Shown: positions 2,676-16,834 of the stretch, one piece after another
Layout of the letters: each line of letters begins with the position of its first letter
Position numbering within the stretch: the stretch's first letter is position 1
IMG/VR virus record: IMGVR_UViG_3300009614_000107
Length of the DNA: 64,000 nt
Source of the DNA: a virus
Taxonomy: Duplodnaviria; Heunggongvirae; Uroviricota; Caudoviricetes
Reading direction: 5' to 3' (one strand)
Notes under the pieces: model-generated
The model's input: the letters and a program-made list of their open reading frames with translations, nothing else
Database searches by the model: none
What the model was told of the DNA's origin: nothing
Position numbers and translations under genes: made by a program

Positions 2676-3094
2676 GATACTCTCACCTTACCGTGCTTTG
2701 GTGGTCTTGTCCAGTTGAATTTCATTTTCTTAATCATTTCATATTCTAAATCAATATGAAGATCTTCTGCTGTTTGGAACAGACGGAGTGCAAGATCGGC
2801 TAAATCCTCACCAAGATGTTCGTTATCTCTCCATTTCTCAAAATCTTCTGAGACTTCAGAATGGAGATAACAAAGAGCTAGAGGAACCTGATCGTTTCCT
2901 TTGAGCCAGTGACCTAACTTAGCGTGTGTGTATTTCTGGGCTTCTCTTTGCCAACCACGAATTGAAAATCCAGTGTAATGTTTTTCAAACCACTGGTTGT
3001 ACGCTTCTATATGACAGGATGGACAAGGACAAAGCTGCTCACCAGATTCTGGATTATATAGGTAGTTTCTATCAGCACAAAGTAGACAGGTCAA
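2672..3094 (-). CDS. Cys-rich hypothetical protein
   Basis: CLLCADR...CPCPSC Zn-finger-like. Confidence 0.45.
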   Translation of the reverse strand: MTCLLCADRNYLYNPESGEQLCPCPSCHIEAYNQWFEKHYTGFSIRGWQREAQKYTHAKLGHWLKGNDQVPLALCYLHSEVSEDFEKWRDNEHLGEDLADLALRLFQTAEDLHIDLEYEMIKKMKFNWTRPPKHGKVRVS

Positions 3095-3327
3095 TCAATA
3101 CCACCTCTGAAACAGATTGCCTGTTCATTTAAATTAATAAGATCTCGAAGTGATAATGGAAGTAAATGGAATGGAAGTGTGGTTATAACTATAACTTTTT
3201 TGACCTTGAGTTTTTTCATCAGTTCTTGATAGTTCACTGGAACAGACATTCTTTCTGGAAGTAAATCTGCCGTATCGAGCAGAAGCGCATACTCACCTTT
3301 GTATTTGATTTTATCCAAACAAAGCAC
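3091..3327 (-). CDS. hypothetical protein
   Basis: ORF in gene string. Confidence 0.35.
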   Translation of the reverse strand: MLCLDKIKYKGEYALLLDTADLLPERMSVPVNYQELMKKLKVKKVIVITTLPFHLLPLSLRDLINLNEQAICFRGGID

Positions 3328-3658
3328 CTCTCATTACGAGAATATTTACATATGCACAGTGGTATCTACCAAAGGCATAAATTAATGGACTAAGGAAAAA
3401 AAGATATTTATATTTGAGATCAAGTCGCATAAATACCCAGCACATAAAGATAATTGAGCCTGTGCAAGCAAACTCAAGGAGCATCCAAGTTCCATTCTGC
3501 ATACCTATTAGCACCAATGGATTCATCTCATAAGTTCCTTGTATTTGCAAACCAAAATGGGTTGTTAGAATGTCAGCCAATGCACCAAGGATAACTACTG
3601 AATAGACAACTATCTCTGAAGTAGTAATTTGCTTTTCATTCTTGGCAAATCTTATCAA
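3311..3658 (-). CDS. polytopic membrane protein
   Basis: 3-4 hydrophobic segments. Confidence 0.45.
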   Translation of the reverse strand: MIRFAKNEKQITTSEIVVYSVVILGALADILTTHFGLQIQGTYEMNPLVLIGMQNGTWMLLEFACTGSIIFMCWVFMRLDLKYKYLFFLSPLIYAFGRYHCAYVNILVMRGALFG

Positions 3659-3840
3659 AGTTCATCTACCTTCAATGGGATTTGTTTTCGCTCCATTGGA
3701 TGTAGGAGATTGATATGATTTTCCCTGAGATAGTGGGATGGAAAAACTTTCGTACAAAAAGGACATTTGTATTCCGTTTTGAATTCAAACTTTTCGCCTG
3801 GAATTACGGACACAAAATGTTCCTCCTCTCGTTTACTCAT
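3655..3840 (-). CDS. C2H2 zinc-finger protein
   Basis: YKCPFCTKVFPSHYLRENHINLLH = C-x2-C-x12-H-x4-H. Confidence 0.5.
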   Translation of the reverse strand: MSKREEEHFVSVIPGEKFEFKTEYKCPFCTKVFPSHYLRENHINLLHPMERKQIPLKVDEL

Positions 3841-4343
3841 TTAGACTTGTCCTCTTTTAACTTCTTGATTGATTCTGAAAAAATCTTGGCTTGCTCTTTA
3901 TGCCTAGTCCAAGACGGTGAATATTTTACAGTTCCATCCTTATCTTGAAGGAATTGACATCCACACTTTTTACACTCTCTCCAATATGGCATAACTGCAC
4001 CAATTATTGGATCATATGGATGTTGCTTGTTGTACGCTCGATTCATCTGATTCATCGTTGGATCTTCCCAATCGATATCGTCTGAGTCACAATTTGGACA
4101 CTTCAACTTTTTTTCCAGCCTCTTGACCACTGGCTTATTAGCATTCGGAGTTAAATTCTTTCCGCACCGCTTACACTCCAAGATGTCTGCTCCTTGATGA
4201 CCTGGAGCCCAAAAAGTATGCACCCATTGGCTCTCCCTATGTGAGCAAGTATCTTGCATTTCTTTTATCTCTAGATCACGCTGTGTTTCTATTGGCTTGA
4301 TCATTTCTTGGTACTTGTTCCATATTCTAGTATATTCAGACAT
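3837..4343 (-). CDS. multi-zinc-ribbon protein
   Basis: CxxC pairs: CKRCGK, CPNCDSD, CKKCGC. Confidence 0.5.
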   Translation of the reverse strand: MSEYTRIWNKYQEMIKPIETQRDLEIKEMQDTCSHRESQWVHTFWAPGHQGADILECKRCGKNLTPNANKPVVKRLEKKLKCPNCDSDDIDWEDPTMNQMNRAYNKQHPYDPIIGAVMPYWRECKKCGCQFLQDKDGTVKYSPSWTRHKEQAKIFSESIKKLKEDKSK

Positions 4344-4539
4344 TTTTCATCGGTTCCCTTTCTATATGGTTGCACTTTGGGCATACCCAAGCGTGTTCTC
4401 CAGAGGCTCTGAAATTTCCAAGTCCTTTTTGAATAGTGTCTAAGATGTAATTCATTTTATGACCACAATTCTTACACTCTCTTTCAGGGAAATGGAATGC
4501 TCCACAACGACCAACAGATGCCATTTTCAAATACACCAA
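4336..4539 (-). CDS. zinc-ribbon protein
   Basis: CKNCGH...CPKCNH. Confidence 0.45.
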   Translation of the reverse strand: MVYLKMASVGRCGAFHFPERECKNCGHKMNYILDTIQKGLGNFRASGEHAWVCPKCNHIEREPMKNV

Positions 4540-4574
4540 TTCGGGTTTTTCTAATTATTAAGGTACAGTTTATA

Positions 4575-4586
4575 TTTATAAATATT
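4575..4586. promoter_or_regulatory. TTTATAAATATT promoter-like element (BRE/TATA)
   Basis: exact 12-mer about 45 nt downstream of the stop of gene 4585..5001, i.e. a terminator-proximal copy that would serve gene 4336..4539. Confidence 0.5.
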
Positions 4587-5001
4587 ATGAAATACTATTA
4601 TTAATTATCTTCCTGAGTTCATCTGCCTCTTTGGTGTAACCTTCTTTTTCACATATCTTGGCCACAGCATCATAGAGGGGAATATCCCTTGGCATTAATT
4701 TGAAGGAATATGGGTTTGCACTTGTTTGTACTTCAAAATTGGCTCGGAAGTATGGACTTTTAACATAGATTAGACCGACTATGATACAGGTTACTGGACC
4801 GATTGCAAATCCTATTGTTAGAAAAATTGGGAAATTGGGGAATATTATTTTTAATGCTGGTATGTTCACAATATCAAGATAAAATGCAACAGAGGCATAG
4901 TTGAAGAGTGTTAGAGGGAGAGCAACGAGAGCATATCCCTGGGTGAATAGAAAAAGCCAGTTGTGTCTAGTTTGTTTTAGCTGATCTATATTTTGCGTCA
5001 A
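4585..5001 (-). CDS. membrane protein
   Basis: multiple hydrophobic helices. Confidence 0.45.
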   Translation of the reverse strand: MTQNIDQLKQTRHNWLFLFTQGYALVALPLTLFNYASVAFYLDIVNIPALKIIFPNFPIFLTIGFAIGPVTCIIVGLIYVKSPYFRANFEVQTSANPYSFKLMPRDIPLYDAVAKICEKEGYTKEADELRKIINNSIS

Positions 5002-5233
5002 ACTGTTTCATCCTTTCTTCTATTGCTTTTGTTTTCGCTATTTGTTTCTGTAATACATTATCTCTTAGGTTGTCAAGAATATCTATTAACTCAGTATCGG
5101 TTGGGCCATCATATGGTTGCCATACTTCACCATAGTTTAGATTAACATCAAGCACAAGAGGCTTTAGTTTTTCCTCTAGCCGTTCCCTCATCTCAGATGG
5201 ATAATCAATCACAAGAACAAGTGTTTTGTTCAA
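4967..5233 (-). CDS. hypothetical protein
   Basis: ORF. Confidence 0.4.
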   Translation of the reverse strand: MNKTLVLVIDYPSEMRERLEEKLKPLVLDVNLNYGEVWQPYDGPTDTELIDILDNLRDNVLQKQIAKTKAIEERMKQFDAKYRSAKTN

Positions 5234-5236
5234 GTT

Positions 5237-5692
5237 TTACAGCTTCCAGAATGGCATATGCTTCGTTTCTTCCCTTTTAGGAGTTACCTTCTCAGGGGCA
5301 TTGGAGTTGTCTTGAACTGGAAAAGTAGATTGTTCCTGTTTCTCAGGCTCTTTTTCCTCTTCTTTATCTTCCTCTTTATCCTCTTCTGTTTCTTCTTCCT
5401 CTTCTGGCTCTTCAAATTGTACCTCAACTATGAACCCTGAATCAAACACAAACATAATGTCCTCCTCATCATCATCCATAGTTGTCAAAATTGCAGCATT
5501 AAAGAGTCCAGATAGTATGCCTAGGGAAGAATTAAATGAACCGCCTGAGTTTTCTAGTTGTTTTGCAACTTCTTCATATTTTCCAATATATTTAATTGAG
5601 ATATCTGTATCACTATAATCAAATCGGTTGATTTTTTCTGAATCAGTAAATCTTATGCCTTTCATATAAACAGTGAGTGTCATATTTACCAC
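5237..5692 (-). CDS. acidic Glu-rich hypothetical protein
   Basis: EEPEEEEETEEDKEEDKEEEKEPEKQE low-complexity tract. Confidence 0.45.
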   Translation of the reverse strand: MVNMTLTVYMKGIRFTDSEKINRFDYSDTDISIKYIGKYEEVAKQLENSGGSFNSSLGILSGLFNAAILTTMDDDEEDIMFVFDSGFIVEVQFEEPEEEEETEEDKEEDKEEEKEPEKQEQSTFPVQDNSNAPEKVTPKREETKHMPFWKL

Positions 5693-6021
5693 TCTGGTTT
5701 GGTTGTATAACTCTTAGAGGCATCGTGCCTGTGATTCTTGAACTTATTTTCAAGGTTGGTTAGAGTGCCATCCAACTCATTTAGTTCGGTTGCAAACAAT
5801 GGACCAAACCAATCTCGATGAACAAGCCCTAGCCTGTCAGCTATCACACCTCTCAGGACATCGTATCTTACCATATCCTTTATTATTTCACCATCCATAG
5901 TCTTATCAAACTCTTCAAAAAGTTTGAGTGTTGGAAGGTTCCAAACTTGATTGTACACAGTTCGTTCATCTTCATTCATATTTGAAGTGAAGAATGGGAA
6001 CTCATAATCTGGTTTTGACAT
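5686..6021 (-). CDS. hypothetical protein
   Basis: ORF. Confidence 0.45.
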   Translation of the reverse strand: MSKPDYEFPFFTSNMNEDERTVYNQVWNLPTLKLFEEFDKTMDGEIIKDMVRYDVLRGVIADRLGLVHRDWFGPLFATELNELDGTLTNLENKFKNHRHDASKSYTTKPEW

Positions 6022-6092
6022 TTAGATTACCTTGGATTCCGCTTAGGCGGTGACTCCAGTGAATGTAATCAGTCAAATCTTTATAAATATTA

Positions 6093-6374
6093 TTATTTAA
6101 TTTCAAGTTCCTTGATTTTTTGTATAGCATTATCCATCTGTTTGATAGTGAATTCTAAGCGCATTCTGTATCCTGCTGCTTCTAATGGTAGACCACCAGC
6201 CATAAGAGTAAGACCAAATAACCTGTTTTGGGATTTTAGTGGTTTTATGAACTTCTCGTCCAGTTCATTTAGAACGATTTCTTGTTTCTTTACTTGATTT
6301 AGATAATGAACGTATAATGTCTTTGTATTTTCGAGTTGGGTCACGATTAGATCTCTATCTTCCTTAGTAACCAT
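6093..6374 (-). CDS. hypothetical coiled-coil protein
   Basis: ORF flanked by TTTATAAATATT elements at 6080 and 6404. Confidence 0.4.
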   Translation of the reverse strand: MVTKEDRDLIVTQLENTKTLYVHYLNQVKKQEIVLNELDEKFIKPLKSQNRLFGLTLMAGGLPLEAAGYRMRLEFTIKQMDNAIQKIKELEIK

Positions 6375-6403
6375 TGTAGTCTACCTGATAAAGGAACATA
6401 GAA

Positions 6404-6415
6404 TTTATAAATATT
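6404..6415. promoter_or_regulatory. TTTATAAATATT promoter-like element
   Basis: exact 12-mer about 30 nt upstream of minus-strand gene start 6374. Confidence 0.55.
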
Positions 6416-6446
6416 TGGAAATTATATGACATTTCTCTGGAGTAGA

Positions 6447-6788
6447 TTACTTCCGTAAATTGGTGATTTCTTGTGCCTTGCATCTACAGAGTAGACAACG
6501 TGTCATTAGTTCTACTCCATTTTTCTCAACATCAACTTTGCCAGCAATGAGTTTTAGTTTATAGGAATTGGAAATCGGTGTGTTGTGATTCATTCCACGT
6601 GCAAGCATTTCCTTGACTATCTCATCGTGACGTGTGCGGATATGGTGAACTTCAACCAAACCATTTTGGATATATCCTTCAATGCTCTTTCCTTTCTCGA
6701 TGCAACCAACAAACATATGGAGTTCGAGATGTTCACCAAGAAGGTGCTTGTCACACATCATCTGGGGTGGGATCATCCACATTCTCAT
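6447..6788 (-). CDS. denV: pyrimidine-dimer DNA glycosylase (T4 endonuclease V / DenV family)
   Basis: CDKHLLGEHLELHMFVG and GLVEVHHIRTRHDEIVKEMLARGMN align with T4 DenV DQHLMAEYRELPRVFG / [32 protein letters not shown]. Confidence 0.65.
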   Translation of the reverse strand: MRMWMIPPQMMCDKHLLGEHLELHMFVGCIEKGKSIEGYIQNGLVEVHHIRTRHDEIVKEMLARGMNHNTPISNSYKLKLIAGKVDVEKNGVELMTRCLLCRCKAQEITNLRK

Positions 6789-6828
6789 ATGATGAAAAAG
6801 AGGCTGAGTGAACTTATAAATAATTGGG

Positions 6829-7032
6829 TTACTCGATTACGTTTCCATATCTGTCTCTTTTCTTCAATCTCCAAATATAGAGTTCGTGATGCTTGCCATA
6901 TGGGGTTTCAGTGCTTATAATATGAGTTTGCCATTCTGGGTGCTTCTTTTTTATCTTTGTGGCCACTTGCTTGGCACTGCTGAGAGTCTTGTACCAGGCA
7001 TAGTACTTGTATTTATTGAAAAACCCAACCAT
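6829..7032 (-). CDS. small basic protein (tandem paralog family)
   Basis: 67 aa, K/R-rich; shares W/Y-x-T..S.AK..A..IKKK..YIW motif with neighbours. Confidence 0.45.
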   Translation of the reverse strand: MVGFFNKYKYYAWYKTLSSAKQVATKIKKKHPEWQTHIISTETPYGKHHELYIWRLKKRDRYGNVIE

Positions 7033-7236
7033 TTACTTCACCCATTTATGCTTGATTCTTCCGAGCTCACCTAGATGGATGCGTTCTGCACTGATTATGC
7101 GACCAATGGTCATTGCTTCTTCAGAATAACCACCTTTTTCTAGGTTGGCTTGGAATTTCTTATAGTCTGCTATAACTTGTTTCTCCGAAACACGTATAGC
7201 ATGTTCGAGTTGTTTTCTTAGAGTTGCATTCACCAT
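7033..7236 (-). CDS. small hypothetical protein (paralog of 7238..7447)
   Basis: 67 aa; ...EE..HLGELGRIKHKW vs ...EEVHRRELAEIKRKW. Confidence 0.45.
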   Translation of the reverse strand: MVNATLRKQLEHAIRVSEKQVIADYKKFQANLEKGGYSEEAMTIGRIISAERIHLGELGRIKHKWVK

Positions 7237-7237
7237 A

Positions 7238-7447
7238 TTACTTCATCCTCATCCATTTTCTCTTGATCTCTGCAAGTTCTCTACGATGAACTTCCTCTTC
7301 TCGTCTGATTTCAATGATTTTACGTGCTTCTTCCACTCTGCCATTTGCCAAAAGATGAGTATAGAATTTGTTATAGCCACGTATGGCCACAATCTCACCA
7401 CGATCATTGCTGGCAAGTTCCCTAAACTCTGATTTACTAGGTTTCAT
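7238..7447 (-). CDS. small hypothetical protein (paralog of 7033..7236)
   Basis: 69 aa. Confidence 0.45.
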   Translation of the reverse strand: MKPSKSEFRELASNDRGEIVAIRGYNKFYTHLLANGRVEEARKIIEIRREEEVHRRELAEIKRKWMRMK

Positions 7448-7608
7448 TTCAATCTCTCCCCACAGAATGGACAGTGAAGTCCACCGTTTGGAACGTATTT
7501 GTAGACATAACTACCCTTTTTGAAGAGATGTTTGTTCTTACAAACTTTATCCTTTCTAATCTGAATACGTGTTCTTGGTGAACCTTCATCATACTTGAGT
7601 CTCTTCAT
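7444..7608 (-). CDS. small zinc-ribbon protein (54 aa, below ORF-track cutoff)
   Basis: ATG at 7606-7608 with GGAG 8 nt upstream; CKNKH...CPFCG; stop overlaps next start (ATGA). Confidence 0.4.
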   Translation of the reverse strand: MKRLKYDEGSPRTRIQIRKDKVCKNKHLFKKGSYVYKYVPNGGLHCPFCGERLK

Positions 7609-7631
7609 TTTTACATCTCCTAATTTATCAT

Positions 7632-7904
7632 TTAATTGCCTCTAGTATTATGGAAGCCTTTTGCTCCTTTTTTCCTCATCCTTATCCTGTCAAGACGAAG
7701 CACTTCATTTGCATATTGAAGTGGGCCATCGTAGGTGAGATACCAGAAGTGTTTGCTTGGAGTCATTGACCACTCGATAGATGCCTGACCGTGTGGTGTC
7801 TTGTAGTATGAAGCATAATTTGTGTGCTTGTCCTGGTAGGGATCGTTGACGGTTTCCTTTTCTTGACGGACATACTTTACTTTTGGATTTGTCATATTTA
7901 TCAC
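7632..7904 (-). CDS. small basic hypothetical protein
   Basis: 90 aa ORF in array. Confidence 0.4.
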   Translation of the reverse strand: MINMTNPKVKYVRQEKETVNDPYQDKHTNYASYYKTPHGQASIEWSMTPSKHFWYLTYDGPLQYANEVLRLDRIRMRKKGAKGFHNTRGN

Positions 7905-8107
7905 AGTTTTAGGAACGCTTCTATCATTGCTCTGCTAAATCCTTCCTTTTTAGCATTGATAGCAAAGACTTCTTTCTTGTCAAGACGCTTTGGAACAGTG
8001 CCACCATATATTGAGGTTGGATAACTGTTTTGCCAAACTCTCTGCATACGATCTGCTTTTGTCTTTCCATATTTCTTTACGAAACGCTGTTCATCATCAA
8101 AACCCAT
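7901..8107 (-). CDS. small basic hypothetical protein
   Basis: 68 aa. Confidence 0.4.
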   Translation of the reverse strand: MGFDDEQRFVKKYGKTKADRMQRVWQNSYPTSIYGGTVPKRLDKKEVFAINAKKEGFSRAMIEAFLKL

Positions 8108-8118
8108 TTCATTTCCAC

Positions 8119-8340
8119 CTACATAGTATATCTGCTTTGATTCCAGAATAGCTTTTTAATACTCTTCTGGGGTCTGAGTTTATCTTTTGGAACCCTGACA
8201 ACGTACAGCCCATTTGGTAATTGGTAGATGGTGTGTTTCCACTCTTTGGAAACTCTCTTAGATACTTCAATTGAGAGTGTGGCTAACCACTTACTTTTAT
8301 CACGAACAATCGCTTCTTGACTTATTTTTCGTATGGTCAT
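8119..8340 (-). CDS. small basic hypothetical protein
   Basis: 73 aa. Confidence 0.4.
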   Translation of the reverse strand: MTIRKISQEAIVRDKSKWLATLSIEVSKRVSKEWKHTIYQLPNGLYVVRVPKDKLRPQKSIKKLFWNQSRYTM

Positions 8341-8492
8341 TTGCTTTTCCTCCTAACTTTTCTAACTACTCCGAACTTGATATCTAAATCAGAAATCCTG
8401 TATAGTGATGCAGGATATTCTTTATGTAAAAATTCCAATGCTTGTTTATAGTTTTTTGCCATAACTCTGACAGATTGGTAAGTTGTCATTTT

Positions 8493-8693
8493 TTATTTTC
8501 TCCTATATTCTTTCTGGTATTCTTTACGTAGACGCTTGTCTATGTATGTGTAAGTCTTGCCACAGTATGGACAACCAACTTTGCAGAAGCCACTTGCAGA
8601 CATTTCACTCCAGCCCTCATCGGGTTTAAGGTGTCTATGGCAGTACGGACAAGTGCCTGTCTTGTTCTCTGAAACCCTTTTCATTACCATTTT
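8493..8693 (-). CDS. small zinc-ribbon protein
   Basis: CPYCHRH...CKVGCPYCGK; start trimmed to internal Met (MVMKR) abutting upstream stop. Confidence 0.4.
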   Translation of the reverse strand, partial: KMVMKRVSENKTGTCPYCHRHLKPDEGWSEMSASGFCKVGCPYCGKTYTYIDKRLRKEYQKEYRRK

Positions 8694-8961
8694 ACTTCCA
8701 GTTCCCCTTTTTGTACCAGCTTGGATATGAGTGCTTATTCTTATACTGTACAAGGTAATGCTTTGGATCGTATTTTGGTCTTGAGTGAGATATACTTACT
8801 CTTAACATATCGCCCCTGTGTTTTGCATTGTCAGCAACTATCTTAGCTTCTTCATATGTTTCGGCTGTGAACACTAACTTGTTTGCCTTTCCCTGGGCTT
8901 TACCCCATCCAGACAAAAATTTGTCTGTCATTGTGACCCAATACTTGTAAGTTGTGACCAT
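8692..8961 (-). CDS. small basic protein (paralog family)
   Basis: FTAETYEEAKIVADNAKHRGDMLRVSISH...YLVQYKNK family motif; SD GGAGAGCGAAAAAGTAAATG. Confidence 0.45.
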   Translation of the reverse strand: MVTTYKYWVTMTDKFLSGWGKAQGKANKLVFTAETYEEAKIVADNAKHRGDMLRVSISHSRPKYDPKHYLVQYKNKHSYPSWYKKGNWK

Positions 8962-9114
8962 TTACTTTTTCGCTCTCCTAAGATGAACTTGCGTAGGCTT
9001 GTATGTTGTCCCGTCTGTGAACTTCTTACGTGCCTCTCTTGCACTATCAGCAACTACTTTGTGCCATCTTCCACCCCTGTGGGGATATTTTAACTCATAA
9101 ACGTGTTTGGTCAT
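8962..9114 (-). CDS. small basic protein (50 aa, paralog-family half-domain; below cutoff)
   Basis: MTKHVYELKYPHRGGRWHKVVADSAREARKKF...; TAATG coupling to next gene. Confidence 0.35.
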   Translation of the reverse strand: MTKHVYELKYPHRGGRWHKVVADSAREARKKFTDGTTYKPTQVHLRRAKK

Positions 9115-9120
9115 TTTATG

Positions 9121-9339
9121 TCATTTCTCCTTGACTACTGCATAGAGGACATATGTCCTTTTATCATATCTGTCTTTCGGTTTGGTGGATGGAAACATAA
9201 CTATTCTGGTATAAAATCCACCTTTTTTCCAGTGTTTTGCAGCGTGTTCAATAGATGATTTTGTTGGGTGATCGGCAACTTTAAGATATGTTCTATGACC
9301 GAATTTTTTAGTTATTGGGATACGTGGAAGTCTTTTCAT
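9121..9339 (-). CDS. small basic protein (paralog family)
   Basis: KKGGFYTRIVMFPS...YVLYAVVKEK. Confidence 0.45.
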   Translation of the reverse strand: MKRLPRIPITKKFGHRTYLKVADHPTKSSIEHAAKHWKKGGFYTRIVMFPSTKPKDRYDKRTYVLYAVVKEK

Positions 9340-9341
9340 TT

Positions 9342-9569
9342 TTAGCGTTTCTCCTTATTGGCTGTGTAGAGGATATAATACATCTTGCCTCTCATATTTT
9401 TGAGTTTAGGATCATTACCACGATATGGACCTGCCTTGACCACACGTGCCATCATACCATCTTTGCGCCTTCTCTCGGCTGTCTTTTGCATCTCACGTTT
9501 GGAGAAGTCTGAGTCATCTAGATAGAAGTGCTTACCGCCTATCCATTTTGTGCTCTGTGGTTTTCTCAT
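9342..9569 (-). CDS. small basic protein (paralog family)
   Basis: KDGMMARVVKAGPYRG...YYILYTANKEKR. Confidence 0.45.
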   Translation of the reverse strand: MRKPQSTKWIGGKHFYLDDSDFSKREMQKTAERRRKDGMMARVVKAGPYRGNDPKLKNMRGKMYYILYTANKEKR

Positions 9570-9890
9570 TTAGAATCCTCCGATATCATATGCACTCCAA
9601 GACTTCTTTCTCTTAGATCCTTCAACATATCTCTTATAAAGGACATAAAGTGTGGCTTTGCGTTTTCCATCCTTAGCCTTGAATGGTTTGACTATTTCAT
9701 TTCTAAGTCCAGCTTCATTTGTGTGCTTTGCCCACCTTTTAGCAACGTCACTATAGAATGTGTAACTTGAGATCACAACATCATATTTCTTTCCACGATG
9801 AATTACGTGCTCAGGAACTTTGAAGGTGAAACCACCATATTCAATTGTTTCCATATTTATCAGTACTCCTTCCAGATGTAGACTGCCCAC
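9570..9890 (-). CDS. small basic protein (paralog family)
   Basis: SYTFYSDVAKRWAKHTNEAGLRNEIVKPF...LYVLYKRY. Confidence 0.45.
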   Translation of the reverse strand: MGSLHLEGVLINMETIEYGGFTFKVPEHVIHRGKKYDVVISSYTFYSDVAKRWAKHTNEAGLRNEIVKPFKAKDGKRKATLYVLYKRYVEGSKRKKSWSAYDIGGF

Positions 9891-10072
9891 ATAGTGTGGG
9901 TCACTCCACCAACTTTTACCATTCTTGCGAGATAGCCTTTCTTCCTATATTTGGTTGCTCCTTCCTTTGCCTGAGTCTTTAATCTATAAAGACGTATGGG
10001 ATGGAATAAGTGCTTACCAAATTTTCTAGAAGTGACAACCTTGTCAAACTCAGAACCGTGATATCTCACCAT
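9860..10072 (-). CDS. small basic protein (paralog family)
   Basis: KKGYLARMVKVGG...WAVYIWKEY. Confidence 0.45.
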   Translation of the reverse strand: MVRYHGSEFDKVVTSRKFGKHLFHPIRLYRLKTQAKEGATKYRKKGYLARMVKVGGVTHTMWAVYIWKEY

Positions 10073-10270
10073 TTACTTTTTCCTCCTGAATACCATAACG
10101 TACTTCTGGCCACTCTTTTGAGTGTAAGTAGGAACAAGCCTGACGCTCCAGCCTTCAGCCTTCAGTTTTTCCTTGTGATATGGTGCTGTACCTTTTTGTG
10201 TAGTGACATAGAGATGGTAGATTTTACCATCAATCACTTTCTCCGAACCGATTAGCCTTCTTTTTCCCAT
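10073..10270 (-). CDS. small basic protein (paralog family)
   Basis: AEGWSVRLVPTYTQKSGQKYVMVFRRKK. Confidence 0.45.
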   Translation of the reverse strand: MGKRRLIGSEKVIDGKIYHLYVTTQKGTAPYHKEKLKAEGWSVRLVPTYTQKSGQKYVMVFRRKK

Positions 10271-10403
10271 TATTTTTTACCTTCCTTGGGATACCATATG
10301 TTCTTTAGTTTGGCATCTGAACCCCAGAGAGTGCCAACCTTTAGGGAGTTATCTCCCCAGAGGGAACCTTGTTTAAAAGAATATTTTTTCTTAGTGGGCA
10401 TAG

Positions 10404-10628
10404 CTACTTCTCCTTGTATGCCTTTAGGTCTGATTCGTGTCTGTACATTGCCTTTGGTTTGCCTGGGATTTTAACACGGTATTCGTATCCAGTGACATAG
10501 AGAGCAGAGCCAAGGACTTTTGCCTTTAACCCACTCTTTGTTTGTACCCACTGACCGACCCTGAACTTTCTCTTTGGATGTTTATGACCCATTACGTCTG
10601 TCCTGCCGTCTGTGTAATCCTTTGCCAT
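10404..10628 (-). CDS. small basic protein
   Basis: start trimmed to MAKDYTDG to remove overlap with upstream gene. Confidence 0.4.
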   Translation of the reverse strand: MAKDYTDGRTDVMGHKHPKRKFRVGQWVQTKSGLKAKVLGSALYVTGYEYRVKIPGKPKAMYRHESDLKAYKEK

Positions 10629-10629
10629 T

Positions 10630-10866
10630 TTATCTCGCCTTCCCGTACACGACATATAGTGGTGGAAAACCACGTAATGTCTCATTATTTGGAATCATTT
10701 TTATTCCAAAGATATTTCCTGTTTTTTTCTTTAGAGCAGCCATTTTCTTTTTAGTCACAGATAGATGCTGTGAATAAACGTGAAGCATTTCGTACTCAGA
10801 ACCTCTAACAGTCACTGAGTCTGGTAGTGTATATGAGTACTTTCCAACTACTACTTTTCTATCCAT
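10630..10866 (-). CDS. small basic protein
   Basis: 78 aa. Confidence 0.4.
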   Translation of the reverse strand: MDRKVVVGKYSYTLPDSVTVRGSEYEMLHVYSQHLSVTKKKMAALKKKTGNIFGIKMIPNNETLRGFPPLYVVYGKAR

Positions 10867-11166
10867 TTACTTTCTCCTCCCTAAATGAACTCCCTTATCG
10901 GTTATAACCGTCCACTCTGAATTTCCTCTGAATTTTGTCATACTGCCTCTACGCTTTTTCTTAGGAGCAATATATACAGCGTGTGTATCCTTACCCTTTC
11001 CACTAGGAACTATTGGTGAATATGACTTTGGAATTTTTACAATCCTTATCTTGTAACCAATTGAAGCAGATTCCTTTGCGTGTGCTTGGCAATGTGCTTT
11101 TGTTCCCTCACAGTCTAGGACATAGGTTTCTCCATTGAATTTCTTCGTGAATGCTGTCTGCTTCAT
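10867..11166 (-). CDS. small basic protein (paralog family)
   Basis: SIGYKIRIVKIPKSYS...HAVYIAPKKKRR; SD GGAGGAAAAAGTAAATG. Confidence 0.45.
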   Translation of the reverse strand: MKQTAFTKKFNGETYVLDCEGTKAHCQAHAKESASIGYKIRIVKIPKSYSPIVPSGKGKDTHAVYIAPKKKRRGSMTKFRGNSEWTVITDKGVHLGRRK

Positions 11167-11310
11167 TTACTTTTTCCTCCCATATTTCTGTTCAATTAGT
11201 TTCTGGTGCTTCTGTAGACGTTTAATCTCTTTATCTGTCTCTCTGAAAAACTTCTCCATTTTAAGTCTTTCATCTTTGAGCATTTTTCTGGCTACTGGAT
11301 CGCTTACCAT
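11167..11310 (-). CDS. small coiled-coil basic protein (47 aa, below cutoff)
   Basis: TAATG overlap with upstream gene; SD GGGAGGAAAAAGTAA precedes next gene. Confidence 0.3.
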   Translation of the reverse strand: MVSDPVARKMLKDERLKMEKFFRETDKEIKRLQKHQKLIEQKYGRKK

Positions 11311-11642
11311 TACTTCTTTCTCCTTACTGTTTGTTTGAACCCATAGAACCTTTCAAACTGTTCTGGGGTCATCGGTGTTCCACCACTTGGAAATTTCTTG
11401 TAGAGTTTACAAGCATTTGAGATTGTAATCTTTTTCTTTGTGTAGCCATATACCTGTGGGTTGCTAAGAACCATACCAGCTCTCTGCAATGGGAATTGTT
11501 TTCCAACTATCAGGGACTTTCTCTTTTTCTTGTATTCTGAGTCAGATATCTTTTTTGCAAGCCAATCTTTATCAAGTTTTTCAAGCTGTCTATTAATGGC
11601 TTGTATTCTTGCTGATATCTGCTTGTGTGTTAGCATTACCAT
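11310..11642 (-). CDS. basic hypothetical protein
   Basis: 110 aa. Confidence 0.4.
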   Translation of the reverse strand: MVMLTHKQISARIQAINRQLEKLDKDWLAKKISDSEYKKKRKSLIVGKQFPLQRAGMVLSNPQVYGYTKKKITISNACKLYKKFPSGGTPMTPEQFERFYGFKQTVRRKK

Positions 11643-11643
11643 T

Positions 11644-11889
11644 TTAATCTACCCATCCTGCTTCTCCAGACTTGAGCAATTTTCTAGCCCTATCTGGTGT
11701 GATTGCTCTCATTGATGCTACATCTTCCTTACGGAAAGCATAATAATGAGGTGTCTGTGATGATCTTGCTTTCTTTGCCTGAGTTGGAGTTCCAGCCCAA
11801 AGTCCATCCTGTATGTGTCTACCTCTCTTCATTTTGATATGATAGATCTTCCATCCAGACTTGATATTACGTCTACCAACTACTGGCAT
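11644..11889 (-). CDS. small basic protein
   Basis: 81 aa; AGGTGAT SD. Confidence 0.4.
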   Translation of the reverse strand: MPVVGRRNIKSGWKIYHIKMKRGRHIQDGLWAGTPTQAKKARSSQTPHYYAFRKEDVASMRAITPDRARKLLKSGEAGWVD

Positions 11890-11895
11890 CTAAGA

Positions 11896-12060
11896 TCACC
11901 TATAATCTCCAACATTTCCATATCCTGGTTTCTTTGGATGGAATTTTGATTTGTGTCTCTTGTCAGCAGCTATGGATTTACCGATGCTAACCCACTTTTT
12001 GAATCTGCCGTCTGCATAGCGTTCTACATAGAACTTTCCAATTTTACTTCTTGCAACCAT
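11896..12060 (-). CDS. small basic protein (54 aa, below cutoff)
   Basis: MVARSKIGKFYVERYADGRFKKWVSIGKSIAADKRHK...; abuts stop of 12061..12243. Confidence 0.35.
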   Translation of the reverse strand: MVARSKIGKFYVERYADGRFKKWVSIGKSIAADKRHKSKFHPKKPGYGNVGDYR

Positions 12061-12243
12061 TTACTTTTTCAACCCCATTCTTTCTGCTCTTTTGGATGCT
12101 ACAAGCAATTCCTTATTTGTGAACACCCAAGATCTGTCCTTTGCCATAATTCCAGAGTAGGTTTTATGGCGTTTTGGATCGTGAATTCTAACGGCAGTAA
12201 CTTTAGTTTTTCTGCCTACTGTGTGTGCTTTATTTTCTGTCAT
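12061..12243 (-). CDS. small basic protein
   Basis: 60 aa; SD GGGGTTGAAAAAGTAAATG. Confidence 0.4.
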   Translation of the reverse strand: MTENKAHTVGRKTKVTAVRIHDPKRHKTYSGIMAKDRSWVFTNKELLVASKRAERMGLKK

Positions 12244-12450
12244 TTACTTTCTTCTCCTCATTCTGTCACGGTGTTTCTTTGTAGAACGGACACGAGCGTG
12301 ATATACTTCCATAGCGTGTTCCTTACCAGCTAACCTGATTGCTTTTAGAGGTTTACCATTGCCATCTGTACCACCAGAAACCCAGTAGTACCCAAGGATA
12401 ATACCGTATGTATCCCTGTCCTTACAAATAGAAACTTTTCTCCTTGCCAA
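12244..12450 (-). CDS. small basic protein (first gene of array)
   Basis: 68 aa; SD GGAGAAGAAAGTAAATG. Confidence 0.4.
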   Translation of the reverse strand: MARRKVSICKDRDTYGIILGYYWVSGGTDGNGKPLKAIRLAGKEHAMEVYHARVRSTKKHRDRMRRRK

Positions 12451-12599
12451 GGTTTGTCTAAGTGGATATCACTAGCTGAGAATATAAAGTTTATGATAAA
12501 TCGTTATGATATTGATAGATGTATCGGTATGGTACATCTAGCTCATCTTTTTATGATAATTCTTTTATCTTAGCGTTCAAGATAGATTAACTGATAACA

Positions 12600-12848
12600 A
12601 TGGTTCCACCACCAAGAAAAAGAATCTTCTTAACAAAGAAGAGAGGCTGGTCGAAAGACCTTCCTGCATCAGAGCGCAGAAAGAGAGTGTATTCCACCAC
12701 AGATCATAAAAAGACTAGACACAACCGCTACCTTGAAGCATTCAGGGCAACACAGGGTCTAGCTAATCTCAGTAAGGATCCTGACACAAAGGCAAAGGCA
12801 AAGTCTGATGCAAATTACTTCTCCAAGAAAATGGAGAAGTACCAATAA
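12600..12848 (+). CDS. basic hypothetical protein
   Basis: only plus-strand ORF here without overlap; divergent from array across repeat-bearing intergenic region. Confidence 0.35.
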   Translation: MVPPPRKRIFLTKKRGWSKDLPASERRKRVYSTTDHKKTRHNRYLEAFRATQGLANLSKDPDTKAKAKSDANYFSKKMEKYQ

Positions 12849-12855
12849 ACTTTTT

Positions 12856-13236
12856 TTATTCTTGTAATAAAGCGTTAGAACTTCCTAAGATTTTATCGAG
12901 TGAGTAGAGGAAGGCTAATGATGTCAGCCTAGACACACCATCTTCATCCATCGTCAAAACAGATATTATTGAAGTATTCGAGAACTTTTTTGAACGAACA
13001 TATACATTAAGATCGTCACTGCTGTCTCTTAAAAATCCATTTTCCTTTCCTATAATAAAATGACCATCTTCATATTTAATAGTCATAAAGCCTGGAAAGG
13101 CATCTTTGATGGCTCTATCAATGTAGTCTTTTGGTTCTTCACCCTGTTTTAGGAAATAAACAACAGAACTTGGGATACTCAAACCGTGACTACTTGAGGA
13201 TGAACCGTGTGCTATTGGAACAAAAATTACAGGCAT
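12856..13236 (-). CDS. hypothetical protein
   Basis: 126 aa downstream of flotillin-like gene. Confidence 0.45.
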   Translation of the reverse strand: MPVIFVPIAHGSSSSSHGLSIPSSVVYFLKQGEEPKDYIDRAIKDAFPGFMTIKYEDGHFIIGKENGFLRDSSDDLNVYVRSKKFSNTSIISVLTMDEDGVSRLTSLAFLYSLDKILGSSNALLQE

Positions 13237-13330
13237 TTTACATCACTCTTTACTTTACATTACTTGACTTAACTGCACTAAACTCCAGTTCACTGCACTT
13301 TACTGCTCTACTTTACTTTAAAAAATGGGA

Positions 13331-15175
13331 TTAGACTGCTTTGGTAGCTGCCTCTTTCTTTCGAAGCATCTGAGCCAGCCAGACATTGAGTAGGTTGCCT
13401 TGGGCTTCTCCACCATTGCCACCTGAAACTAGGATATCAGGTGTGATAGTGATCTTGCCAGAGGCAATCTGCTCGAACACCTTTAGCATTGCAACGTTGT
13501 CCTGACCTAGGACACCCATCTGTGCAGCATATGCTTTAGCTGTACCTACACCTTCCTGTTCATTCTTGTAAGCTGTACCGTCTGCCTGAGCCTTAGTTGC
13601 ATCACGAACACCAGCAGCTTCCATCCTTGCTGCATCTGCACGGTCTGCTGCAATATCGATTGACAGTTTAGCTGAGATAACGTCAGTCTGCTTGTCAGCC
13701 CTTGCCGTTTTCTCTGCTACAGCAATCCTCTGCTCCTGTGCAAGTGCTTCCTGCTGGTACTGTGCCTGTTGCTGGGCAGCTATTTCCTTCTTTGTCTGAG
13801 TTTCTAGTAGTGCCTTGTCAACATCAATGTAAGCAATTAGCAGCCCCTGAACCTCTGTGTGGTACTTCGAGAACTCTTCACGAGCCTTCTCAAGTGCCTG
13901 TTCCTGTAGTTCAGTTCGGCTGTGGACGAACTGCATTGCCTGTTTCTTGCCAGCTTCGTTACGGAAGGAGGAGTCGATCAGTGGGTGAGCAACCTGTTCA
14001 ATCAGGTTCTGTACAGTACCGAACCTTGCAATCACGAAAGGTGCATTGGCTGGAGGTACACGGATGATGAGCCTGACATCTACATCAAGCTGGAACCCAT
14101 CCATTGAAGTTACACGAAGTTGGCTGAACTTGAAGAACTCTGTGATCTTCTGGCTCTGGGAAACGTCCTTTCCCTGAGCTCCAAGTACACGTGTCTCTGC
14201 TGGACCCTCAGTTGATGCCCAATCTATAGTGATAGCGGAAGTAGGTACTAACTCAGGCTTGTAGGCGATTTGGTTAAGGTTGTACTTTCCAGGTGTAACT
14301 GGCTCGGCCAGAATACCACGCTGGTTCTTGTCAGTGATTAGAAGAGACTCAACTGTCTCTGGAATTGGGGAATTGAGATCAGGTGTCTTGCTGATTTTTG
14401 GTGCTTCACCACTAGGCTGGACTTCCTTTCCAACACTGGAAATGATTACAGCAACGTAGCCTGGTGGGACAACAGCAACATCATAGAGAGTGACTTGGAA
14501 TAGGTTAGTATTTATGTAGTAATCACCTGGCTGAAGTGTCTCAAGTTGTGGACCCCTGTAGCCACCAGCCTCAATGAAGGCTTGGCTGTCTTGGAAGTGC
14601 TTGTGATCTGATGTGGGTGCTGGAGCAATTATGAAACCAGATGGCAGTGAATTGCCATCCATAGCAACAACTACACCGACCCTCTCCTGTGGAACTTGTA
14701 CTGCACCAACTGCTGTGACTTTGAATACAGCTAGGTTGATACGATAAACACCTGGGCGAAGTACACCAATCTGAGGACCCTTCTTTCCACCATTCTTGAG
14801 GAATGCCCCTGCATCTTGGTACGAATTACATTCAACCTCATCTGCAAGGATACGACCAGATGGAATGGATTGTCCGTCAATGGACTCAACTAGACCAATA
14901 TTTCCCTGTGGAATCTCGGTCACTTCGACCTTCTTAATCTTCCAGATTATGGGGAAACGCCAGTAAAGTCCAGGCATAAGGGTTTCAGCTTGAATACCGA
15001 CCTCACCCTCAGTAGCAATGATTTTTCCCTGTGGTAATTTCTTGCCAAACATTTTCTTAACTAGGATACCGACCTCACCAGCTTTGATGAGAGCGAATCC
15101 TGGTAGCACGAAGAAAACTAAGCATATTAGTACGACAATGCCTAGAATCCCTAGTCCGATTAGATCTTCAAACAT
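13331..15175 (-). CDS. flotillin / SPFH (band-7) family membrane protein
   Basis: N-terminal TM; internal duplicated SPFH-like segments; Ala/Glu/Gln coiled-coil region; C-terminal ITITPDILVSGGNGGEAQGNLL typical of bacterial flotillin/YqiK; GC content visibly higher than flanks. Confidence 0.6.
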   Translation of the reverse strand: MFEDLIGLGILGIVVLICLVFFVLPGFALIKAGEVGILVKKMFGKKLPQGKIIATEGEVGIQAETLMPGLYWRFPIIWKIKKVEVTEIPQGNIGLVESIDGQSIPSGRILADEVECNSYQDAGAFLKNGGKKGPQIGVLRPGVYRINLAVFKVTAVGAVQVPQERVGVVVAMDGNSLPSGFIIAPAPTSDHKHFQDSQAFIEAGGYRGPQLETLQPGDYYINTNLFQVTLYDVAVVPPGYVAVIISSVGKEVQPSGEAPKISKTPDLNSPIPETVESLLITDKNQRGILAEPVTPGKYNLNQIAYKPELVPTSAITIDWASTEGPAETRVLGAQGKDVSQSQKITEFFKFSQLRVTSMDGFQLDVDVRLIIRVPPANAPFVIARFGTVQNLIEQVAHPLIDSSFRNEAGKKQAMQFVHSRTELQEQALEKAREEFSKYHTEVQGLLIAYIDVDKALLETQTKKEIAAQQQAQYQQEALAQEQRIAVAEKTARADKQTDVISAKLSIDIAADRADAARMEAAGVRDATKAQADGTAYKNEQEGVGTAKAYAAQMGVLGQDNVAMLKVFEQIASGKITITPDILVSGGNGGEAQGNLLNVWLAQMLRKKEAATKAV

Positions 15176-15216
15176 TTGAATACATCTCTGTTTGCAAATG
15201 TAGGACTGTGCTAAAG

Positions 15217-15228
15217 TTTATAAATATT
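15217..15228. promoter_or_regulatory. TTTATAAATATT promoter-like element
   Basis: about 40 nt upstream of flotillin-like gene start 15175; abuts tRNA 3' end. Confidence 0.55.
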
Positions 15229-15235
15229 TGGAATT

Positions 15236-15320
15236 TGGTGGGGTTACAAGGAGTCGAACCCTGACCCTTGGTTTTCCCCTATTTCTGGGGACCAAGATGC
15301 TACCGCTACACCATAACCCC
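15236..15320 (-). tRNA. tRNA with about 11-nt intron in anticodon loop; anticodon CCA (Trp) most likely, CCC (Gly) alternative; CCA end encoded
   Basis: acceptor GGGGTTA/TAACCCC, T-arm CAGGG-TTCGACT-CCTTG, CCCC..GGGG helix flanking anticodon-loop insert. Confidence 0.6.
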
Positions 15321-15368
15321 AATGATATGCTCTAAGAAATGTGTGAATTTATAAATCTTGTGATTGGG

Positions 15369-15797
15369 TTAATCCCCACCGCCACCGCCATCTCCCCCAC
15401 CACCGCCATCTCCTCCTCCTGCATCTCCACCACCACCAGCATCAGAACCACCACCACTGCCACCAGAGTCGATTCCACCACCTGAACCACCATTTGATGC
15501 ACTGCCTGAGTCACCTGGACTTGGACCCTCTTCGTCATCTCCATTTGAGGATGTTGATGGATTTGAACTACTTGAACTGCCACCACCGTCATAGAAGAAA
15601 TATGGCATCCAAGGAACCCATCCAGTGTCAGTCGAGTTGTCTTTGCCTGATGTCGGTTTTGGATATGACCTTGATTGCTGGTTAATCATAGCTGTTTTTA
15701 TATTGGAAAGTAAAATAACTGTCAATAACAGTATGACAAACACCATAATTGCTGAAAGGGCTAAAGTTAGCTTTGTTCCCGTTCTCATATCGATCAA
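15369..15797 (-). CDS. Gly/Asp-rich low-complexity protein with N-terminal membrane anchor
   Basis: TM LTLALSAIMVFVILLLTVILL then GGSGGG/GGGGD repeats. Confidence 0.45.
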   Translation of the reverse strand: MIDMRTGTKLTLALSAIMVFVILLLTVILLSNIKTAMINQQSRSYPKPTSGKDNSTDTGWVPWMPYFFYDGGGSSSSSNPSTSSNGDDEEGPSPGDSGSASNGGSGGGIDSGGSGGGSDAGGGGDAGGGDGGGGGDGGGGGD

Positions 15798-15900
15798 TAA
15801 ATTGTAAGTTTGAGTGTTTATAAATATTTAGTATATTTTTTATATAGATAATTAATAAAATTTTGTTTGAAACTAATTATCTCGGAAATAAATAATTATT

Positions 15901-16671
15901 TTATGGTATCAGTTCTATCTTAGTAACCGTATCATCATATGATGGTGCTTCATAGATAGTTCTGTCCCAATATGGTTGACCAACTTTAACGTGCATTATT
16001 ATATCAGTCTGTGGCTCGATGTAGACAATTCCCCTGTCTGTGGTGTTGAAAGCTACCAAAGCGTGTCCTACACTTGTTGGCATAAAATCACCCATCTCGA
16101 TAGACACAAAGAAACACCGATAACCAGCATTAAACGCATTTCTCTTCACATCTGATGTGAAATCGTGGCAAACATAGCTACCTTCTACATATTCTTTCTC
16201 ATCTGTCTTGTCATTCTGTATGAATGTAAGCATCTGTTGATATGTTGGGTCTTTGATATTAAATCCTGTAGCTTTCCATCCTTTTTGATATCCTACTGTA
16301 TAGCCTGTTTTTTCACCCAAGCCATAGCCAGTTGTATTTCCGACTTTGTAACCGTTGGTGTATCCAGTGGCAATACCAGCCGTGTTACCAGTATTGTATC
16401 CAGCTAGATCACCCACATTGTAGCCTCTACCATACCCAACGGAATCACCAGCCGTATATCCTGTATTATACCCATCCTTTGTTCCATTTGAATAACCAGA
16501 GGTATATCCAACTGGATAACCTGATTTGTATCCAGCAATCTGTCCCTCAGTATATCCAGCAATATGTCCTTGAGTGTTTCCAAAGTAAAAACCAAAAAAG
16601 GTTCCACCAAGGATCATTGCTGTCATTCCCACAATTACTATTGTACTTGTCTTTTGGTTCATTTCATTCAC
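15901..16671 (-). CDS. GY-hexapeptide-repeat protein with N-terminal TM and C-terminal globular domain
   Basis: about 17 tandem x-G-Y-x-x-G units. Confidence 0.5.
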   Translation of the reverse strand: MNEMNQKTSTIVIVGMTAMILGGTFFGFYFGNTQGHIAGYTEGQIAGYKSGYPVGYTSGYSNGTKDGYNTGYTAGDSVGYGRGYNVGDLAGYNTGNTAGIATGYTNGYKVGNTTGYGLGEKTGYTVGYQKGWKATGFNIKDPTYQQMLTFIQNDKTDEKEYVEGSYVCHDFTSDVKRNAFNAGYRCFFVSIEMGDFMPTSVGHALVAFNTTDRGIVYIEPQTDIIMHVKVGQPYWDRTIYEAPSYDDTVTKIELIP

Positions 16672-16715
16672 TATTACGTATTGATAATTAACTTACTTAA
16701 AAATGTTATGGATTA

Positions 16716-16795
16716 TGGCGGGTTCGGAGGGATTTGAACCCCCGACAAGTGGATTAAAAGTCCACTGCGCTAAGACCTGACTGCGCCACGAACCC
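16716..16795 (-). tRNA. tRNA-Lys (anticodon UUU), CCA encoded
   Basis: GGGTTCG...GGACTTTTAATCCAC...GGTTCAAATCC...CGAACCCGCCA. Confidence 0.8.
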
Positions 16796-16829: not shown

Positions 16830-16834
16830 GTGAA

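Follow-up and report, generated by a model that had tools for sequence, protein, structure and literature searches.

A tandem array of 26 small basic proteins in a large peat virus and the virus-associated RKFNG domain that recurs within it

What could a large virus do with 26 very small, strongly basic proteins encoded back to back? The question is raised by a stretch of 64,000 nucleotides (nt), hereafter the window, from the IMG/VR record IMGVR_UViG_3300009614_000107 (Caudoviricetes), whose source is an uncultivated double-stranded DNA virus of ~198 kb from peat. On its minus strand, positions 6829-12450 (5.6 kb) are filled by 26 consecutive open reading frames (ORFs) of 43-110 amino acids (aa) with gaps of at most 23 nt, designated g01 to g26 (Table 1). 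This array appears to be a rapidly evolving small-gene accessory module of a large phage, set apart by the uniform basicity of its products and by a domain family, RKFNG. An initial annotation made from the sequence alone had described a co-oriented, translationally coupled block of small, Lys/Arg-rich proteins in a virus, and this description is borne out.

The uniform positive charge is the most striking feature of the block. All 26 products have an isoelectric point (pI) of 9.4-10.8, compared with medians of 7.1 for 48 large ORFs of the window and 6.7 for 19 small neighboring genes on its flanks. Lys and Arg together make up 24% of the array residues versus 11.7% in the large ORFs of the window, and the net charge is +15 per 100 aa in the array versus 0 in the large ORFs.

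The same genes were predicted by independent JGI (Joint Genome Institute) and ENA gene callers, and the starts of four of them (g05, g09, g14, and g18) were reset to an internal ATG right after the upstream stop codon, with a purine-rich stretch lying just upstream of three of the four reset starts. Junctions range from a 4-nt overlap to a 23-nt gap, the latter between g05 and the downstream g04, and include two ATGA overlaps, two 1-nt overlaps, and nine cases in which TAA directly abuts ATG (0 nt). In 18 of the 26 genes, the start codon follows a Shine-Dalgarno core of 4 nt or longer; the exact sequence GGAGGAAAAAGTAAATG was found twice in the array, and a sequence ending in AAGTAA lies at or adjoins the start codon in ~9 genes. 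The common ribosome-binding context ascribed initially to nearly every gene is overstated. Two related peat phages, L008/L037 (105-kb contig) and L026 (194-214 kb contigs), carry the same kind of operon, and array orthologs share 41-87% amino-acid identity with the related phage. Because synonymous sites are saturated in six of ten ortholog pairs and the ratio of nonsynonymous to synonymous divergence (dN/dS) is 0.05-0.42 in the remaining four while the proteins are conserved, the array ORFs are genuine coding genes under purifying selection. Inside the block, sigma-70-like promoters (22 found, 20.1 expected from shuffled sequence) and intrinsic-terminator-like sites (6 found, 5.0 expected) occur at chance level, and the block is therefore most simply read as one long polycistronic, translationally coupled unit.

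The initial annotation had regarded the array as ~24 paralogous proteins, at least ten of them with a common core. A multi-copy family is indeed present, but profile tests place only eight of the 26 genes in it and leave 18 outside. With a hidden Markov model (HMM) built from 124 members outside this phage clade, six products (g01, g12, g13, g15, g16, and g20) matched directly, with E values from 1e-16 to 3.7e-7 (Table 1), and g14 fell at the margin with 2.8e-3; more than 340 decoy ORFs did no better than 0.87. Comparison with the RKFNG family by hhalign gave 97-99% for five products, 83% for g01, and 65% for g14. The four-sequence profile of the g14 subfamily finds g19 (E = 2.5e-8, hhalign 92%) and itself reaches 85% (E = 6.8e-6) against the main RKFNG family, whereas g19 has no direct match to the RKFNG family profile. 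The profile evidence thus assigns eight genes to a single family, six by direct match and g14 and g19 as divergent members joined via the subfamily. Comparison within the window alone detects significant relatedness only among g12, g13, g15, and g20, and g16, g01, g14, and g19 were placed only with the help of external homologs. The four example motifs quoted initially (from g15, g13, g20, and g16) all come from true members of this one family. The suggestion that shorter members retain the N-terminal half only finds no support, as g08, g11, g17, and g24 score below 3% in hhalign. By the same profile tests, the other 18 genes appear unrelated to RKFNG and comprise the g02/g03 pair, the zinc-ribbon-like g04 and g09, the PHROG 5423 member g10, and orphans.

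The RKFNG domain spans ~55 residues, with one copy in each of the eight array products, and its consensus reads TRKFNGKxY - TKxxAxxxAxxLRKxGY - ARVVK - YxVYxR, with F16, G18, Y21, K30, A33, A37, R41, G44, R48, V49, Y60, and Y63 as the most conserved positions. Word-indexed protein searches returned few relatives of the family; when 1.84 billion cluster representatives (50% identity clusters, metagenomes) were scanned exhaustively with HMMER, 921 were recovered at E <= 1e-3. Nearly all external members have 55-80 aa and are strongly basic, and three (P0017, P0018, and P0019) contain two or three tandem RKFNG domains joined by basic linkers. The 697-aa P0019 is a rare large architecture, in which three RKFNG domains are parted by 'AVLSNPKK'-type repeats and followed by more C-terminal regions, and which might offer a hint to function. 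Moreover, every copy in the window is nearer to some external member than to any paralog of the same genome, so the copies are old rather than the product of a recent burst. The lineage-specific expansion proposed at the outset is at odds both with this pattern and with the 921 cluster representatives in metagenomes. A strict-motif scan (TRKFNGKxY) of 185,579 species genomes gave one match, on a viral-looking contig of a Bacteroidota metagenome-assembled genome, absence from species genomes in such a strict scan being a lower-bound statement only. A tblastn search with one canonical member found nothing among 50,697 GenBank phage records.

No Pfam or NCBIfam model is matched by the RKFNG family with a score that reaches its cut-off, and all matches in PHROG are sub-threshold; the exception in Pfam is one external two-domain protein, which scores 21.5 bits against SPOR (cut-off 21). 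Among PDB sequences, the family profile found nothing significant (best E = 0.046, a designed mini-protein), and a Foldseek search of BFVD with the g13 model gave no match at E <= 1e-3. In the literature, no paper with the signature peptides was found, and a keyword search on small basic phage paralogs gave nothing specific. The initial expectation of a multi-copy family absent by name from curated libraries was therefore correct, and RKFNG is, on these profile searches, a new, widespread, virus-associated domain that is in no curated library.

Its predicted fold places a helix between two beta-hairpins. The AlphaFold2 models of g13 (predicted local distance difference test, pLDDT, 86.4; predicted template-modelling score, pTM, 0.70; 12-sequence alignment) and g15 (pLDDT 82.2, pTM 0.67; 63 sequences) share the same order of elements, namely a beta-hairpin with the RKFNG residues, a 13-residue helix, and another hairpin (beta-beta-alpha-beta-beta). 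SPOR was the sole recurrent sub-threshold Pfam match, in 22 of 136 family members, and no window member matched SPOR even at E <= 1. The SPOR fold is beta-alpha-beta-beta-alpha-beta, with two helices on a four-stranded sheet. Compared with SPOR domains (PF05036; FtsN, DamX, DedD, RlpA, and CwlC), RKFNG is predicted to have an extra N-terminal hairpin that bears the signature and to lack the second helix and fourth strand, and it occurs in strongly basic proteins without an export signal. Membership of SPOR was rejected because the family profile reached only 6% against the profile of four E. coli SPOR domains, and the RKFNG domain, as modelled, is SPOR-like in layout but not a SPOR domain. The weak resemblance to AbrB suggested earlier is not reflected in the Pfam matches of the window or in the 25 families listed for the 136 members, and the models contain the 13-residue helix; YegP/DUF1508 is likewise absent from both sets of matches.

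Comparison with the related phages revealed a hyperplastic block, in which close relatives keep ~11 collinear anchors with heavy gene turnover between them (26 versus ~35 genes). The L037 array comprises ~35 genes over 9 kb with 12-13 RKFNG members, and the L026 array has 6-7 RKFNG members, compared with eight here; copy number thus varies between relatives, which the initial annotation had put forward as a point to check. The orthologs shared by the window and L037 (g26, g22, g18, g17, g15, g13, g14, g11, g06, g04, and g03) are largely collinear, and all genes between these anchors differ, while the flanking Band_7 protein is 83% identical. Nonsynonymous divergence (dN) between the window and the related phage is 0.30-0.53 for RKFNG orthologs versus 0.12 for Band_7, whereas the anchors g06, g18, and g26 evolve as slowly as Band_7. 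Beyond this clade, the RKFNG domain is widespread among viruses that have not been cultivated, either as a single copy or in tandem arrays of a similar kind. One such array lies on L032, an unrelated viral contig of 76.5 kb, and has at least eight RKFNG copies, the same Shine-Dalgarno junctions, and RRK tails, alongside further small basic proteins and a few that are small and hydrophobic. On a marine contig, three copies follow one another, and smaller viral contigs have single copies; in two of these contigs, the RKFNG gene comes directly after a strand switch, with ~260 nt upstream. A megablast search of the region against the 50,697 GenBank phage records gave no match, and neither g22 nor the Band_7 alignment retrieved relatives from IMG/VR. 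In L026, a resolvase and an IS605 OrfB/TnpB-type gene (2984-4724) lie ~4 kb upstream of the small-gene array.

Upstream of the operon start, ~70 nt are near-invariant between the window and L008, although the coding DNA is only 66-83% identical. The leader region (12451-12599) contains TTTATATT, a TATA-like sequence 30 nt before the TTG start of g26, preceded by two ATATCATA-like repeats and a palindrome (12516-12540). The TTG start is found in both the window virus and L008, without a Shine-Dalgarno sequence. The region could hold a promoter of phage-specific or archaeal type whose leader is very short; the promoter motif is not repeated elsewhere in the window (3 matches, 1.24 expected).

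The array lies in a non-structural part of this genome, among replication, repair, and transfer RNA (tRNA) genes. The window codes for a family-B DNA polymerase (PolB), two helicases, an RFC-like clamp loader, and a DUF3987 primase/helicase-type protein, and also for a pyrimidine-dimer glycosylase (DenV), an SPFH/Band_7 protein, seven tRNA genes, and glycosyltransferase and radical-SAM genes. Positions 1-19569 are 100% identical, with zero single-nucleotide polymorphisms over 19.5 kb, to contigs of several independent peat samples, and the longest contigs matching the window start measure 197,619 and 197,232 bp. Two JGI assemblies stop at the identical point, 124 nt past window position 1, and the ENA assembly stops 493 nt past it, leaving the array ~7-13 kb from the contig end in the three assemblies. 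The end of these assemblies may reflect the actual end of the genome or the edge of a repeat.

As to function, we tentatively favor, with a probability of roughly 0.4, the reading that the array is a hyperplastic accessory module of host-takeover type whose proteins bind a polyanion, probably nucleic acid. Its products would be cytoplasmic and made in roughly equal amounts; the RKFNG proteins would bind via the open face of the four-stranded sheet, expected to bear conserved Arg and aromatic side chains, and different paralogs may give different specificities. The module would then serve as an accessory, host-takeover-type, or nucleoid-remodelling kit, in a role like that of the small-gene early modules of SPO1, T4, and T7. 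Binding of a polyanion, probably nucleic acid, is suggested by a charge that is uniform across non-homologous proteins of one operon, by the tandem domains with basic linkers among the relatives, an architecture typical of polymer binders, by the universal conservation of the signature, implying a universal ligand, and by structural echoes, for the most part of sheets that bind nucleic acid. The early, host-takeover flavor comes from the neighboring replication and repair genes, from homologs of g10 upstream of a T7-like RNA polymerase gene and in Herelleviridae arrays, and from the precedent of SPO1, whose module of 26 small genes with strong ribosome-binding sites occupies a 12.4-kb terminal region (Mulvenna et al. 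2019; PMC6873191).

The likeness to SPO1 extends to the number and tight packing of ~26 mostly small genes with strong ribosome-binding sites, and to products that mostly have no known function and belong to accessory genes of the dispensable type; a position near a genome end may be a further parallel, the block lying 6.8-12.5 kb from the end of ~197 kb contigs here. The two differ in that SPO1 is divided into about a dozen operons and uses numerous early promoters, whereas one conserved leader and one long unit are found here, and in that the SPO1 module lacks the multi-copy domain family and the uniform basicity of the array. No similarity to SPO1 proteins turned up in PHROG scans of the array products, which included no direct comparison with SPO1 proteins. 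Among the array genes, g10 alone belongs to PHROG 5423, with homologs in early or terminal small-gene regions of cultured phages. In T4-like phages, hyperplastic regions and internal-protein loci have collinear anchors parted by variable tiny ORFs near tRNA genes, and some of the products are basic. The array is not known to be related in sequence to these loci, and it differs in that all of its products are basic and a single family accounts for a third of the genes.

Several points weigh against binding of nucleic acid by a host-takeover module. Part of the basicity is a coding by-product of reading Shine-Dalgarno sequences in frame, for the C-terminal RRKK, GRKK, and RRRK tails (g16, g20, g21, g22, g25, g26, and g11) correspond to the Shine-Dalgarno sequence and A-rich spacer of the next gene (e.g., AGG AGG AAA AAG TAA, read as RRKK-stop), and like tails occur throughout the RKFNG family in other viruses; these tails, however, contribute only ~+2 to +4 to a net charge that ranges from +5 to +19 per protein. 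In addition, the conserved aromatic residues may do no more than build a hydrophobic core, and the weak SPOR resemblance could instead mean glycan binding. Takeover modules of the SPO1 type lack such uniform basicity and use many promoters instead of a single one, and Gp44 of SPO1 is described as an acidic DNA mimic. Furthermore, the array lies at least 22-45 kb from the contig end in the two related phages, and its transcription in the window heads toward the nearby contig end rather than inward from it.

Other explanations of a set of small basic proteins have to be set against the same observations. The products could be virion-internal, DNA-condensing proteins that are packaged with the 198-kb genome to neutralize its charge and perhaps injected, like the internal proteins of T4 or the core proteins of adenovirus. 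All 26 are basic and probably co-expressed in equal amounts, two other viral contigs have an RKFNG gene or array beside structural-looking genes (Laminin_G_3, beta-helix/NosD, and capsid-like ORFs), and tRNA genes lie 3 kb from the array, much as the hypervariable T4 internal-protein loci lie near a tRNA cluster. We nonetheless consider packaging improbable, given that the array stands among replication, repair, and nucleotide-metabolism genes rather than in a structural module, both in this genome and in the relatives, and that the single copies of two smaller viral contigs sit at strand-switch junctions. Motifs for capsid targeting or protease cleavage were not seen either, though no search aimed at them was made. 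The rapid turnover of gene content between close relatives, with a dN above that of the flanking gene, would in turn suit an anti-defence arsenal, in which each small protein inhibits a different component of host immunity and turnover reflects an arms race; the small size of the proteins, the early-type setting, and the lack of matches to known families would fit as well. Such an arsenal is also unlikely, since the RKFNG signature is strongly conserved in hundreds of viruses from different habitats, pointing to a universal ligand, and uniform basicity is unexpected for a mixed set of inhibitors. Known DNA-mimic anti-defence proteins are acidic, whereas the array products are basic.

Far less probable still are two readings drawn from resemblance. 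Diverged SPOR domains would bind denuded glycan strands of peptidoglycan, for example in septum targeting or lysis, and the recurrent sub-threshold matches recall that family; against this stand the SPOR comparisons above, the single predicted helix in place of two, and the lack of a signal peptide or membrane segment. No hydrophobic N-terminal segment was seen by eye in the 26 products, which are consequently expected in the cytoplasm, away from peptidoglycan. An association with ribosomes or translation is suggested by the likeness to bacterial ribosomal-protein operons (S10 and spc), which are also long, translationally coupled, and composed of genes for small, uniformly basic proteins. We regard it as very unlikely, because no Pfam family, whether of ribosomal proteins or not, is matched at its cut-off by any of the 26 products; placement in a ribosomal-protein family, an outcome set beforehand as a check, was thus not observed. 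Among the 136 family members, a single match to a ribosomal family appeared (ribosomal_L24, E = 0.044), and the only echoes of ribosomal proteins among PDB sequences have E values of 0.28 or worse. Finally, a bolder form of nucleic-acid binding appears doubtful, though less so than packaging or an anti-defence arsenal: RKFNG may be a new, essentially virus-only fold family of nucleic-acid binders. Large viruses would then combine 8-13 divergent copies of it with additional tiny basic proteins into a toolkit of nucleoid-associated or 'chromatin' proteins.

The genes of the array are collected in Table 1 together with the upstream region.

Table 1. Genes of the array, listed from first to last, and features upstream of it (window coordinates; E, match to the external RKFNG HMM)
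Feature	Coordinates	Strand	Length (aa)	Description	Related sequences
Divergent ORF	12600-12848	+	82	Basic, conserved	
Leader/promoter	12451..12599	-		Upstream of first gene; shared with divergent basic ORF	
g26	12244..12450	-	68	First gene, TTG start; conserved anchor; not RKFNG family	h02 of L008, 78% identity; dN/dS 0.15
g25	12061..12243	-	60	Basic orphan	
g24	11896..12060	-	54	Basic orphan	
g23	11644..11889	-	81	Basic orphan	
g22	11310..11642	-	110	Net charge +19; conserved anchor; not RKFNG family	h04/m03, 62% identity
g21	11167..11310	-	47	Probably helical, basic orphan	
g20	10867..11166	-	99	RKFNG member with C-terminal extension	E = 1.2e-15; hhalign 98.2%
g19	10630..10866	-	78	Divergent RKFNG member (g14 subfamily), N-terminal extension	
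g18	10404..10628	-	74	Start reset to 10628; conserved anchor; not RKFNG family	h09/m08, 81% identity; dN/dS 0.07
g17	10270..10401	-	43	Gly/Trp-rich anchor	h10/m09, 41% identity
g16	10073..10270	-	65	RKFNG member	E = 5.8e-12; hhalign 97.4%
g15	9860..10072	-	70	RKFNG member, modelled	E = 1e-16; ortholog m10, 67% identity
g14	9570..9854	-	94	Start reset to 9854; divergent RKFNG member, N- and C-terminal extensions	Orthologs h17, k11
g13	9342..9569	-	75	RKFNG member with loop insertion, modelled	E = 3.3e-14
g12	9121..9339	-	72	RKFNG member	E = 1e-13; hhalign 97.9%
g11	8962..9114	-	50	Basic; not RKFNG family (hhalign 2.6%)	m18, 64% identity (C-terminal part of a 132-aa protein in related phage)
g10	8692..8961	-	89	PHROG 5423 (function unknown); family separate from RKFNG	phrog_5423, E = 1.9e-30
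g09	8493..8690	-	65	Start reset to 8690; two CxxC pairs, zinc-ribbon-like	
g08	8337..8489	-	50	Basic orphan	
g07	8119..8340	-	73	Basic orphan	
g06	7901..8107	-	68	Most conserved anchor	m31 and k13, 87% identity
g05	7632..7895	-	87	Start reset to 7895; basic orphan, weak Shine-Dalgarno sequence	
g04	7444..7608	-	54	C-terminal CxxC, zinc-ribbon-like	C-terminal half of 97-aa m34, 58% identity
g03	7238..7447	-	69	Helical, g02 paralog	Ortholog m35, 71% identity
g02	7033..7236	-	67	Helical, g03 paralog	
g01	6829..7032	-	67	Last gene; RKFNG member without first strand	E = 3.7e-7; hhalign 83%

The alignment of g01 to the RKFNG profile begins at state 20. The most conserved anchor, g06, is present in both related phages. 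For the anchors outside the family, g26 scores 0.7% against the RKFNG family in hhalign and has no Pfam or PHROG match, and for g22 the searches of Pfam, PHROG, NCBIfam, and PDB gave no match that reached the cut-off. The match of g10 to PHROG 5423 is full length (residues 2-89 on profile positions 4-90 of 93); its homologs occur among arrayed small genes in Bacillus phages of the Herelleviridae, and a T7-like Pseudomonas phage carries one as gene 3, upstream of the RNA polymerase gene. A placement of g10 as a distant RKFNG member was rejected, a three-sequence g10 profile reaching 2.5% in hhalign. The zinc-ribbon-like g09 has many weak zinc-ribbon and zinc-finger matches in Pfam, all below cut-off. 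The paralogy of g02 and g03 was supported by BLASTP (E = 1.4e-8); an ExxH-containing segment of this pair (7033-7447) weakly resembles the C-terminal helices of rubrerythrin, and g02 scores 20.1 bits (E = 8.7e-4) against Pfam Rubrerythrin, below the cut-off of 22.8.

The seven tRNA genes (Trp, Lys x2, Arg, Ile, Met, and Thr) lie at 15236-22664, just upstream of the Band_7 gene and the array, and Lys and Arg are the residues most used in the array. The Band_7 protein itself (614 aa, 13331-15175) shares 53-76% identity with homologs on metagenome contigs, several of them cellular-looking (high guanine-plus-cytosine (GC) content, without phage genes), which suggests that the gene was captured fairly recently from a host lineage and offers a possible host clue. 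Its relatives in JGI metagenomes occupy 16 loci, mostly on high-GC cellular contigs or in a different phage, and Band_7 is not a marker for the array because none of these loci has the array or the RKFNG family. PolB (25989-28325 / 33514-34497 region, with the RFC-like clamp loader) has its nearest relatives among the GenBank phage records in haloarchaeal tailed viruses, at 24% identity only; hints to the host domain point two ways, PolB toward haloarchaeal viruses and the g10 homologs toward bacterial phages. In addition, a large cluster at 40871-63492 encodes a protein of 758 aa with a GH5 cellulase domain, together with three or more family-2 glycosyltransferases and a radical-SAM enzyme of the B12-binding type; it may serve in glycan modification.

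That all 26 products of one operon are positively charged points to a polyanionic target shared by them. If the array is indeed a nucleoid toolkit, it would organize the viral genome or dismantle the host nucleoid, and the operon would be a viral counterpart of a chromatin-protein toolkit. Large phages keep their tools for host manipulation in clusters of tiny accessory genes, most of which are orphans, and naming the RKFNG domain and finding its ligand would provide an annotation for hundreds of 'hypothetical' viral proteins.

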